From positions 3,639-67,638 of the forward strand of contig SAUS01000001.1 in the NCBI GenBank assembly GCA_004000625.1: a DNA stretch of 64,000 nt, read 5' to 3'. This DNA is from Candidatus Cibiobacter qucibialis (GTDB lineage: Bacteria > Bacillota > Clostridia > Oscillospirales > Ruminococcaceae). How positions within the stretch are numbered: position 1 is the first letter of the stretch; each line of letters starts with the position of its first letter. Positions 1,929 to 63,377 of the stretch are shown one piece after another. The notes under the pieces were generated by a model. The model made no database searches. It saw only the letters and a program-made list of their open reading frames with translations, and had not been told where the DNA came from. Made by a program: the position numbers and the translations under genes.

Positions 1929-1968
1929 CAATGCAGGCTGCGACCACAGGTTGCAGCCTGCATTTTTT
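1929..1968 (+). terminator. Intrinsic terminator after SBP gene (hairpin ATGCAGGCTGC...GCAGCCTGCAT + T-run)
   Basis: Perfect 11-bp stem, short loop, followed by TTTTTT; typical partial terminator between highly expressed SBP and permease genes. Confidence 0.7.
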
Positions 1969-2100: not shown

Positions 2101-2118
2101 ACGAACCTGAAAACTTAG

Positions 2119-2290
2119 GGCAACACCGCACAATTCCCGCCTTGCGGCTTAAGCACCGCTCCGGCAGCTGCGGCACGGCATCTGCGTTGCCAAAATGCTC
2201 GATAAGACATCCAGTATTATCTGCGCTTTTGGCTTGGCATCTGCCGCACCTCGCTCGCCGTATCGGCACTTAGAATTATGCGGTATTGCC
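2119..2290. repeat. ~172-bp palindromic intergenic repeat, copy A (terminal inverted repeats GGCAA(C/T)ACCGCACAATTC / GAATTATGCGGTATTGCC)
   Basis: Near-identical copies at 16022-16193, 26247-26417, 63191-63362; miniature at 19621-19679. Located between oppA-like SBP and first permease. Confidence 0.85.
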
Positions 2291-15898: not shown

Positions 15899-16021
15899 AC
15901 TCAACGCCGGCAACGGCAGGAGAGGGGAAAACCCGGCTGGATTGCAGGCTGGGTTGTAAAATAAGAATGAATGACGGTAAACTCCCTTGACAAGCGGATT
16001 TGAACCATCCATAATGTATAA

Positions 16022-16193
16022 GGCAACACCGCACAATTCCCGCCTTACGGCTTAAGCACCGCTTCGGCGGCTGCGGCACGGCATCTGCGTTGCCAAAATG
16101 CTCGATAAGACATCCAGTATTATCTGCGCTTTTGGCTTAGCATCTGCCGCACCTCGCTCGCCGTATCGGCACTTAGAATTATGCGGTATTGCC
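16022..16193. repeat. ~172-bp palindromic intergenic repeat, copy B
   Basis: ~95% identical to copies A, C, D; between uvrC and rsmD. Confidence 0.85.
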
Positions 16194-16292
16194 ATAAGTG
16201 CAACTGTTTATCCCGAATAAGAGTGCTCTGGCTTGAGCTTCCCGGCGGGATGGGTGGCTGCCATATAACAAATGAAAGGCAGGCGGCCTAAC

Positions 16293-18034: not shown

Positions 18035-18102
18035 GATACACTTTGAGCGGGGGTGTACCCCTGCATGTTAAACCGTGTGAAACGGGGAAAGAGGAGAACA
18101 CC

Positions 18103-19620: not shown

Positions 19621-19679
19621 GGCAATACCGCATAACTTTGGGTGCCCAAGCCGTCAGGTGGGAATCATGCGGTGCTGCC
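19621..19679. repeat. Miniature derivative of the 172-bp repeat (terminal inverted repeats only)
   Basis: GGCAATACCGCAT...ATGCGGTGCTGCC flanking a 30-nt core with its own palindrome TTGGGTGCCCAA; between ftsL and pbp. Confidence 0.5.
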
Positions 19680-26194: not shown

Positions 26195-26246
26195 GAATTC
26201 CCGCATGCCTGCGGAAAGCATTGTTCTCTTTGGTTTCAGATATAAG

Positions 26247-26417
26247 GCAATACCGCACAATTCCCGCCTTACGGCTTAAGCACCGCTCCGGCGGCTGCGG
26301 CACGGCATCTGCGTTGCCAAAATACTCGATAATACACAAAGTATTATCTGCGCTTTTGGCTTAGCAGCTGCCGCACCTCGCTCGCCGTATCGGCACTTAG
26401 AATTATGCGGTATTGCC
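26247..26417. repeat. ~172-bp palindromic intergenic repeat, copy C (inside dcw cluster between ftsW and murG)
   Basis: Same family; central hairpin loop differs (ACAAA vs ATCCAG) while stem GATAATAC/GTATTATC is perfect. Confidence 0.85.
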
Positions 26418-26459
26418 ATAACATAAACGTTCGATTTTACGGAGAAAAGAGGAATCACT

Positions 26460-31023: not shown

Positions 31024-31186
31024 GATGCTCGTCATCGTCCCGTGAACGAGCCGTGGCCAATCATTTACCCCCACATATGGCAAACGACCGCTGGCGCACA
31101 ATGTGCGCCCCTACGGGTGGGATGTATGGTAAATGATGATTGCGCGTTATAAAACGCGCTCTGTAGGGAACGGTCTTGATCGTTCC
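31024..31186. repeat. Cluster of four REP-like hairpin units (GTAGGGG-hairpin, inverted unit, GC hairpin, CTGTAGGG-hairpin)
   Basis: GACGATGCTCGTCATCGTCC, GGCGCACAATGTGCGCC, GCGCGTTATAAAACGCGC, GGAACGGTCTTGATCGTTCC; units shared with 2078-2100 and 51017-51042. Confidence 0.5.
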
Positions 31187-31232
31187 GAAAACCATAAATT
31201 AGATGTATGATGGAATATAATCCCCCTAAAAC

Positions 31233-50935: not shown

Positions 50936-51106
50936 AAAGTTAGGAGTTAGGAAGTAGGAGTTAGGAGCTGAAGAACGGCTGCTAGACTTGAGGTCTTTTG
51001 CAATCTATAAAATGCTCTGTAGGGAACGATCTTGACCGTTCCAAAGCATTCAGCTTGTCGCAGCCTCAAAAAACTCCTAACTCCTCACTCCAACCTCCTA
51101 ACTAAA
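50936..51106. repeat. ~170-bp inverted-repeat element 1 (AGGAG-rich arm ... REP-like core ... CTCCT-rich arm) between GT4 and fnlC
   Basis: Arms GTTAGGAGTTAGGAAGTAGGAGTTAGGAG / CTCCTAACTCCTCACTCCAACCTCCTAAC; core contains CTGTAGGGAACGATCTTGACCGTTCC; paralogous copy at 52265-52425. Confidence 0.7.
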
Positions 51107-52264: not shown

Positions 52265-52425
52265 ATACAGTTAGAAGGTAGGAGTGAGGAGTTAGGCGTT
52301 GAAGAACGACTGCTGGTTTTATTGTCTTCCGCAAACGATAAAGAGTTTCGCAGGGAACGGCTTTGAATGTTCTGAGACATTTACCTTGCCCAGGTTTCAA
52401 AACTCCTAACTCCTACCTGAGTATG
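52265..52425. repeat. ~160-bp inverted-repeat element 2 (paralogue of element 1) between fnlC and fnlB
   Basis: Arms GTTAGAAGGTAGGAGTGAGGAGTTAGG / AAACTCCTAACTCCTACCT; shared internal block TGAAGAACG(A/G)CTGCT and degenerate GCAGGGAACGG core. Confidence 0.65.
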
Positions 52426-63176: not shown

Positions 63177-63190
63177 GGGCAGAAAGCTAA

Positions 63191-63362
63191 GGCAATACCG
63201 CACAATTCCCGCCTAACGGCTCAAGCACCGCTCCGGCGGCTGCGGCACGGCATCTGCGTTGCCAAAATGCTCGATAAGACATCCAGTATTATCTGCGCTT
63301 TTGGCTTAGCAGCTGCCGCACCTCGCTCGCCGTATCGGCACTTAGAATTATGCGGTATCGCC
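63191..63362. repeat. ~172-bp palindromic intergenic repeat, copy D
   Basis: Same family as A-C. Confidence 0.85.
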
Positions 63363-63377
63363 TTAAAATTCAGGAAA

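Follow-up and report, generated by a model that had tools for sequence, protein, structure and literature searches.

Four repeats of 172 bp, found in a 64,000-nucleotide stretch of DNA from Candidatus Cibiobacter qucibialis (the whole of this stretch is called the window here), are with high probability a non-autonomous DNA transposon, namely a MITE derived from an insertion sequence (IS) of the IS5 family. An earlier note on this DNA had proposed a MITE without a transposase of its own. This reading holds, because the repeats have target duplications and precise empty sites, and because there is an autonomous IS5-family element with the same ends. That the repeats are a MITE is secure. The family is still mobile in a very abundant lineage of the human gut. 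Its members also form a long hairpin, and comparison of many elements makes selection for this structure on one particular strand well supported.

The copies lie at positions 2119..2290, 16022..16193, 26246..26417 and 63191..63362, and are numbered 1 to 4 in this order. The strand assigned to each is the one that folds well, which is the minus strand of the window. Copies 2 to 4 are 94.2-97.7% identical to copy 1, so the four copies of about 172 bp and more than 90% identity that had been described are real. Their coordinates were right for copies 1, 2 and 4, and for copy 3 the start had been placed one base late (26246, not 26247). Single-base indels among copies lead to lengths of 171-174 bp. 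The window as a whole has a GC content of 57%.

All four full copies are intergenic, as had been stated. Copy 1 is in the spacer between an oppA-like and an oppB-like gene, copy 2 between uvrC and rsmD, copy 3 between ftsW and murG, and copy 4 between the gene for a PTS-fructose EIIC component and agcS. The orientation that the copies were said to share is indeed common to them in window coordinates. It fails relative to transcription, because the genes on both sides of copy 4 are on the minus strand, which means that copy 4 is inverted compared to the other three.

Every full copy is flanked by 4-bp duplications, which the earlier note had not observed. Copy 1 has TTAG on both sides (left 2115..2118, right 2291-2294). 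Copies 2 and 3 both have ATAA, at 16018-16021 and 16194-16197, and at 26242-26245 and 26418-26421 respectively. The duplication around copy 4 is imperfect, with CTAA at 63187-63190 and TTAA at 63363-63366, and one end of this copy is the rare variant GGCGAT.

Each full copy opens with GGCAAYACCGCACAATTC and closes with its near-complement. These terminal inverted repeats (TIRs) are some 17-18 bp long; in copy 1 they span 2119-2136 and 2273-2290. If the TIR GGCAAYACCGCAYAAYT is searched for with at most 3 mismatches, the window gives 13 matches where 1.4 are expected, and 0 of 100 shuffled sequences reach 13. Ten of these 13 matches are the two ends of five units, which are the four full copies and a miniature of 59 bp. 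Each full copy is also an imperfect palindrome over its whole length. With TIR matches this far above chance, and with stable folds, the inverted repeats and overall palindrome of the earlier description are confirmed.

Two landmarks stand out within copy 1, both assigned to the minus strand. A small side hairpin, which reads CCGCC-TTG-CGG on the plus strand, is located just inside one TIR (2137..2147). The apex of the palindrome is formed by a central hairpin, GATAAGAC-ATCCAG-TATTATC (2201..2221), and this is also where a 284-bp form of the element, discussed below, has its 112-bp module inserted. The central loop of copy 3 is unlike that of copy 1 and reads ACACAAAG. A conserved stem around a variable loop had been brought forward as a sign of structural selection. 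The argument points in the right direction, but by itself it is weak within the window, because the copies are about 95% identical or more.

The miniature lies at 19621..19679 on the plus strand. It consists of two TIR-like ends (0 and 2 mismatches) with a short spacer between them, so its description as a derivative that has kept the termini stands as far as the ends go. It differs from the four full copies in two respects: its flanks are TCAA and CTTA, which is not a target duplication, and it has the reverse polarity. The unit occupies the same site in strain L212, and it resembles pairs of TIRs, 35-74 bp in length and with TTAA duplications, that are found in other genomes.

Folded as RNA, a 172-bp copy reaches -72.8 kcal/mol on the plus strand (z = -5.3) and -97.8 kcal/mol on the minus strand (z = -9.6). 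A scan for promoters and terminators found a terminator-like hairpin of oppA upstream of copy 1, no sigma-70-like promoter inside this copy, and nothing else inside the element. At gathering thresholds, Rfam 15 reports three tRNAs for the window and nothing on the repeats. When the threshold for copy 1 is relaxed to E values up to 10, one chance match to STnc320 appears (15.6 bits), outside the element. The suggestion to check Rfam thus yielded no known non-coding RNA family that matches the element. The open reading frames that cross the copies have no family matches.

A conserved small open reading frame (ATGACGG...) was considered and rejected. An alignment inspected by eye shows that frames and stops differ from one lineage to another, and that the motif itself is one half of the conserved stem.

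Evidence for mobility comes from other strains in which the same sites are empty. The oppA/oppB spacer occurs without the element and with a single TTAG (...GAAAAC TTAG CGCTTT...) in three strains (L127, L129 and L130). The uvrC/rsmD spacer likewise occurs with a single ATAA (...AATGT ATAA GTGCAAC...) in L133-L135, and the PTS/agcS spacer with a single TTAA in L142-L144. In the empty-site strains for these three spacers, the flanking proteins are identical to those of the window. The fourth site, ftsW/murG, is empty in L212, even though this strain and the window share 99% identity across 12.9 kb. All 4 sites in the window thus have precise empty alleles elsewhere, in which the target is present once. 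The reciprocal case is also found: L212 carries a 172-bp copy between mraZ and rsmH with TACA on both sides, where the window has a single, unoccupied TACA (18037..18040).

A metagenome scan with a family-specific interior motif matched 120 stretches of human-gut DNA with a total of 880 kb. These stretches have 101 complete elements, spread over 96 separate sites, and exact 4-bp duplications flank 70 of these 96. After de-duplication there are 53 copies of 172 bp, which are 94.8-100% identical to their own consensus. Given these copy numbers, the near-identity of the copies and the empty sites, the family is high-copy, young and currently polymorphic. Its host lineage is also very common: the oppB-like protein is present with identical sequence in 44,434 blocks of an assembly collection, and MurG in 12,265.

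The element is not confined to this lineage. A scan for the end motif, using one genome per species, matched at least 116 stretches. Among the matches listed, nearly all hosts are Oscillospirales and other Clostridia, with genera such as Ruminococcus, Faecalibacterium, Gemmiger, Subdoligranulum, Agathobaculum, Butyricicoccus, Acutalibacter and Anaerotignum. The TIR-bounded units among these matches range from 35 to 337 bp, and their lengths peak markedly at 160-161 and 171-172 bp. Exact 4-bp duplications flank 42 of 70 such units; an offset control gave 1 of 70. Elements of 157-172 bp that share the TIRs occur across many genera, and their interiors are divergent. The closest named element among the matches listed is from an uncultured Faecalibacterium sp. 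(L018, 93%), followed by elements from Subdoligranulum (82-84%). Judged by these matches, by the GC content of 57% and by the gut origin, the genus of the lineage would probably be Faecalibacterium. The search for empty sites and target duplications in related genomes that had been recommended thus found both. The relatives across genera contradict the possibility that there is no conservation in relatives, and the polymorphic copies contradict fixation at orthologous sites without empty alleles.

Insertion takes place in AT-rich intergenic DNA at tetranucleotides that resemble TTAA or Py-T-A-Pu, of which 4 bp are duplicated. The consensus of the duplications is TTAA/YTAR, and TTAA, TTAG, CTAA, ATAA and TAAA dominate. 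Many of these (TTAG, ATAA, TAAA, CTAA) are non-palindromic, so the duplications are genuine and not extensions of the TIRs.

A partner that could provide the transposase exists in relatives. In a Ruminococcus sp. (L072, 951-2081) the same TIRs bound a unit of 1131 bp with a 4-bp duplication. It encodes a protein of 325 amino acids that scores 312.6 bits against NCBIfam model NF033581 (IS5 family transposase), where the cut-off is 140, and that also matches the Pfam families DDE_Tnp_1 (95.8 bits) and DUF772 (62.4 bits). A second IS variant (L082) is 71% identical to this one. A third, of 1130 bp (protein P0011), was found as eight insertions (L271-L278) at different sites with duplications of the CTAA/TTAA type. 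Over these ten IS copies, exact 4-bp duplications are present in six.

The transposase of the Ruminococcus unit has 7,939 relatives at E <= 1e-40, many of them on contigs of about 1.2 kb. When it was used as a query against a plasmid collection, the matches listed were only distant IS5 relatives on proteobacterial replicons, annotated as IS5-family transposases and about 47% identical over the full length. Neither the window nor the 880 kb of contigs from the same lineage was found to contain an IS5-type transposase, or IS-like sequence adjacent to a TIR. This lack is weak evidence, since assemblies from short reads frequently lose IS elements that are multicopy. The interior of the MITE is not simply two ends of the IS joined together, and past the TIR the likeness to the IS extends for only a few bases. 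Based on the shared ends and duplications, an IS5-family transposase would act in trans, binding the TIRs and mobilising the 172-bp element.

The element also comes in longer forms. The 284-bp form has a GC-rich module of 112 bp at the apical loop, and in a form of 236 bp one of the arms contains a module of 64 bp. Each module folds into a hairpin of its own, and the main stem is preserved. The 284-bp allele is found at oppA/oppB in L124 and L132, and a long allele at ftsW/murG in L006. This means that one and the same site can be empty in some strains and have a short or a long allele in others. Short and long forms can also be present on a single contig (L001 and L125, both from ERZ28761083 contig_815).

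The idea that the 112-bp and 64-bp modules are independent mobile elements nested in the MITE was rejected, as they occur essentially only inside it.

At PTS/agcS, the short copy of the window and a long copy in L141 sit at the same TTAA with their interiors inverted relative to each other. In both, the end on one and the same side is the variant GGCGAT, which is seen in only 1 of 170 ends. The centre of the palindrome is thus a hotspot for the gain and loss of modules and for inversion. Conversion within the palindrome, which is not selective, is real and contributes to the patterns seen.

The body of the element is an imperfect hairpin of about 80 bp. For 18 divergent elements of 170-172 bp from different genera, oriented homologously by sequence alone, the same strand is the more stable one in 18 of 18 cases, by 11-37 kcal/mol. 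This better-folding strand is the minus strand of the window, and reads 5'-GGCAAT...GGTGTTGCC-3'. The same strand is better in 19 of 19 elements from the 157-161-bp class, with differences of 7-33 kcal/mol, for 37 of 37 over the two size classes. For this shorter class the comparison relies on energies per sequence, since the alignment is too poor for the consensus fold to contain anything beyond the stem of the TIRs.

For 17 divergent elements of 170-172 bp, RNAalifold predicts 51 pairs at -59.9 kcal/mol. Compensatory double changes are found at 32 of these 51 pairs. In the alignment, 95.1% of the cells at paired positions can pair, compared to 77.4% in shuffles and 36-48% when partners are slid, with the caveat that the 17 elements are related, and that shuffle statistics and p-values therefore overstate independence. 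The side hairpin, present in one arm only and common to the divergent 170-172-bp relatives, serves as an architectural landmark. It covaries as well (helix 6): pair 145-152 is GC in 10 elements and CG in 7. Covariation across genera in this way backs the claim of structural selection on the hairpin. Within the family of the window, paired positions vary seven times less than unpaired ones (0.010 vs 0.072 substitutions per position per copy).

The imperfect pairs tell on which strand the fold matters. On the favoured strand of the 17-element alignment, on which the structure had also been predicted, G·U cells outnumber A·C cells 112 to 7. Because the structure came from this strand, the prediction was repeated on the opposite one. 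That gives only 28 pairs at -19.4 kcal/mol, and even among these the first strand has most of the wobbles (15 against 4). In an energy-free alternative, every element is aligned, under symmetric scores, with the reverse complement of itself. This yields 210 G·T against 81 A·C, with a G·T excess in 29 elements and an A·C excess in 2. The direction of the wobbles is uniform, and many of the wobble positions are lineage-specific. A double-stranded palindrome or cruciform cannot favour G·T on one strand, and the fold would therefore have been selected or preserved in single-stranded form with a fixed polarity. The single strand could be read-through RNA or single-stranded DNA.

In the family of the window, G·U also outnumbers A·C among variants common to several copies, with 24 against 8 (p = 0.007). 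For private variants, seen in one copy each, the figures are 5 against 4, at very low counts.

Polarity can be compared to that of the IS. Of the three IS variants, two have the end asymmetry (T6/C6) of the well-folding strand, with 5'-GGCAAT...GGTGTTGCC-3' when read in the sense direction. In L072 a small hairpin adjoins the TIR at the sense 3' end, and L082 has the motif GGCGTTA where the MITE has its side hairpin. This evidence is limited to the T6/C6 asymmetry and, in L072 and L082, to brief resemblances next to the ends; it suggests that the well-folding strand may be the counterpart of the sense strand of the transposase gene in the IS.

Relative to the host, orientation is random. Among copies between co-directional genes, the two orientations are equally frequent (16 to 16), and the element is about as common in convergent gaps (13) as in divergent ones (14). 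Compared to local GC skew, 39 of 74 copies agree, which is no significant bias; in the subset with strong skew this is 23 of 34 (p = 0.058), taken as not significant either. Judging by the random orientation, the lack of a promoter, the low variation of paired positions, and a G·U bias in shared but not in private variants, the fold seems to count for lineages that propagate, more than through the effect of a resident copy on its neighbours. The structure would then serve the element's own propagation more than the adjacent host genes.

What the hairpin does can be explained in several ways. One possibility, tentative at best, is that it is not just a by-product of the palindrome, and that this group of IS5-type elements needs it in order to propagate, as a single-stranded intermediate or cofactor, either as single-stranded DNA of one specific strand that folds back or as RNA of the sense strand. 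If true, this would be a DDE-transposon lineage whose non-autonomous members are under selection for a strand-specific structure across a whole bacterial order. Alternatively, the repeat could primarily be a structured RNA at the level of the host, either a small-RNA family or a module that terminates transcripts, stabilises mRNA or is a site for RNase III, with the hairpin kept for the transcripts of neighbouring genes and with mobility being incidental. The strong covariation, confined to one strand and tolerant of G·U, would suit such a role, as would the location of copies in transcribed operon spacers, and there are precedents in bcr1 and the Correia/nemis elements, MITE-like repeats that act at the RNA level (PMC3184786). 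A host function is nevertheless improbable, as it does not sit well with even use of both orientations and of convergent and divergent gaps, nor with private mutations that lack the G·U bias. In addition, presence of the element differs between near-identical strains at every site examined, and a copy contains no promoter-like site and has no Rfam match.

It may also be that the hairpin has no function. Template switching (quasi-palindrome correction), gene conversion from arm to arm, and inversion would then maintain the palindrome, and the strand asymmetry would reflect ancestry or mutational bias. Conversion and template switching can mimic compensatory change, the copies within one genome are young at about 95% identity or more, and short and long forms at the same sites indicate frequent conversion-like exchange. 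The interior inversion at PTS/agcS also took place in situ, with the rare end variant on the same side in both alleles. What such processes leave unexplained is the excess of 112 to 7 (or 210 to 81), since conversion would erase G·T and A·C alike. This one-strand excess moreover recurs at lineage-specific positions and in arms of very different sequence, and because orientation is random with respect to transcription and replication, a mutational strand bias of the host should cancel. A hairpin without any function is for these reasons a rather unlikely account as a whole; on the narrower choice between a functional single-stranded state and ancestry plus conversion, the balance is roughly even. 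A system that depends on single-strand hairpins, like REP/REPIN with RAYT or one of the IS200/IS605 type, would rely on precisely such a strand-specific hairpin. That this is at work here, and not a DDE-type MITE, is very improbable given the clear TIRs and 4-bp duplications, the IS with a DDE transposase of the IS5 family that is bounded by identical TIRs, and the absence of orientation bias against the GC skew proxy for replication.

The MITE derived from an IS5-family element can be compared to known systems. IS5 of E. coli is reported to encode a DDE transposase and to duplicate a tetranucleotide with the consensus Py-T-A-Pu, and its own mechanism of transposition has not been directly investigated (PMC5493358). 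The element has in common with the IS5 family its TIRs of about 17 bp that start with GG and its 4-bp Py-T-A-Pu/TTAA-like duplication, and the partner IS passes the model for the family. It differs in that it is a non-coding unit of 172 bp, in its preference for TTAA over CTAG, and in its hosts, which are Oscillospirales and other Clostridia. The transposase of the partner is also only about 47% identical to the proteobacterial IS5-family proteins.

The bcr1 repeats of the Bacillus cereus group reportedly have a secondary structure at the RNA level that is kept by compensatory changes (PMC3184786). Like the element, bcr1 is a MITE-like repeat of Firmicutes, some 155-170 bp long, that has short direct repeats at its flanks and varies in location between close strains (PMC3184786). 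The two would not be expected to be similar in sequence. Going by its description, it differs in having direct repeats of 5 bp and a cruciform-like fold with two stems, where the element has a single long hairpin, 4-bp duplications and a relative in the IS5 family. Correia elements (CREE/nemis) of Neisseria are intergenic MITEs of about 100-160 bp with TIRs and long hairpins, co-transcribed with their neighbours (PMC3184786, PMC11602168). Both these and the element are abundant intergenic MITEs with TIRs that form a long hairpin as RNA. Correia elements have 26-bp TIRs and a TA duplication. The element has TIRs of another sequence and length, duplicates 4 bp, and lives in Clostridia, which is a different phylum.

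Other families, like ERIC/IRU, RUP, BOX and REP/REPIN, are similarly intergenic, multicopy, palindromic and foldable as RNA. REP/REPIN sequences depend on RAYT transposases and lack an architecture of TIRs plus duplication, and IS200/IS605-type elements likewise have neither TIRs nor a duplication; in both systems insertion is strand-specific and linked to replication. BOX is modular and not bounded by TIRs, while ERIC and RUP have other ends and targets of the TA type. None of the ERIC/IRU, RUP, BOX or REP/REPIN families has an Rfam match in the window. The literature searches that were run found no specific description of this family, and a 2024 bulk survey of prokaryotic MITEs, in the passages matched by a search for terms, names Faecalibacterium in passing only.

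The element inserts in operon spacers, including those of the opp-like operon and of the dcw cell-division cluster, and co-transcription of these two copies with their operons is plausible. Because it sits in such places and differs between strains that are 99% identical, it is a source of strain-level regulatory variation, and also a high-resolution strain marker. It fragments metagenome assemblies too: by a hand tally, about half of the whole contigs that contain the element end inside it. Finally, the conservation of a one-strand hairpin over an entire order may offer a handle on whether MITEs of the IS5 type need a single-stranded, folded state.

The MITE comes in more than one size. Apart from the 172-bp unit, two discrete forms occur: one of 284 bp, whose apical loop holds a GC-rich hairpin module of 112 bp (19 of the sampled TIR pairs), and one of 236 bp, in which a 64-bp module lies within one of the arms (5 pairs). 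Both modules are nearly confined to the interior of the element. The loci behind these structural variants are L006:2579-3021, L124 and L132:722-1114 from other genomes, and the human-gut metagenome loci L151-L270. Single sites segregate for empty, short and long alleles of the element.

The site between the PTS gene and agcS has such alleles. When compared with the empty alleles L142-L144, the 172-bp copy in the window (63187-63366) and a 284-bp copy in another strain (L141:607-1215) are found to occupy one and the same TTAA, and the interior of one runs opposite to that of the other. The end variant GGCGAT, which has a frequency of 1/170 ends, is on the same side in both copies. This arrangement points to an inversion in situ, or to gene conversion from one palindromic arm to the other.

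Two other insertion sites have features of their own. The empty ftsW|murG allele, on a metagenome contig 99% identical to the window over 12.9 kb, has a 9-bp tandem duplication (ATAAACGTT) adjoining the unoccupied ATAA target (L212:10290-10300, compared with window 26418-26440). This could be a footprint or an unrelated indel. Upstream of copy 1, 3’ of the oppA-like gene, lies a terminator-like hairpin with a T-run (window 1930-1964). A perfect palindrome, AGCGCTTTTTATAAAAGCGCT (2293-2313), overlaps the TTAG insertion target and is also present in the empty alleles.

By hand tally of the metagenome loci L151-L270, about half of the whole contigs with the element terminate within it, and for L187 and L196 this is true of both contig ends. 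Short-read assembly of this lineage, which is abundant in the gut, therefore breaks off at the repeat.

Human faecal viromes also contain the element: 26 of their contigs, unannotated and recorded as ‘Bacteriophage sp.’, carry it, mostly at 93-99% identity (phage collection; matches H1-H15, MT836497-MT839756). They may stem from prophages, from transduced DNA, or from bacterial DNA that contaminated the virus-like-particle preparations. Two extrachromosomal records of Subdoligranulum variabile have copies that are about 70% identical. The exact TIR motif also matches at least seven MAGs (L022, L026, L037, L056, L060, L080 and L109), labelled Bacteroides faecis, Chitinophagales, Gammaproteobacteria, Spirochaetaceae, Eggerthellaceae, Sphingomonadales and Mailhella. 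Three of them, L022, L056 and L060, have TIR pairs of 42-49 bp; the pair in L060 is flanked by an exact TTAA duplication, that in L022 by TTAA/GTAA. The other four have a single motif match each. Chance, binning contamination or horizontal spread may account for the matches in these seven MAGs.

There may be a weak replication-related bias in orientation. The window-plus strand of the element is the G-rich strand in 23/34 metagenome loci with strong GC skew (p = 0.058), and in 39/74 of all metagenome loci.

The window also holds a 32-nt repeat, GCTCTGTAGGGAACGGTCTTGATCGTTCCGAA, that is unrelated to the MITE. It has three copies (31158-31189, 51014-51045 and 52345-52376) and contains a short inverted repeat. 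With one copy taken as reference, the other two show 91% and 69% identity to it.

The 1130-bp IS5-family IS with MITE-like TIRs contains an extended -10-like sequence, TGGTAAAAT, about 40 nt inside its sense-5’ end (positions ~1487-1495 of each of the loci L271-L278), immediately 5’ of the start codon of the transposase gene. If the promoter is indeed this sequence, transposase mRNA would start within the IS and leave out the 5’ TIR.
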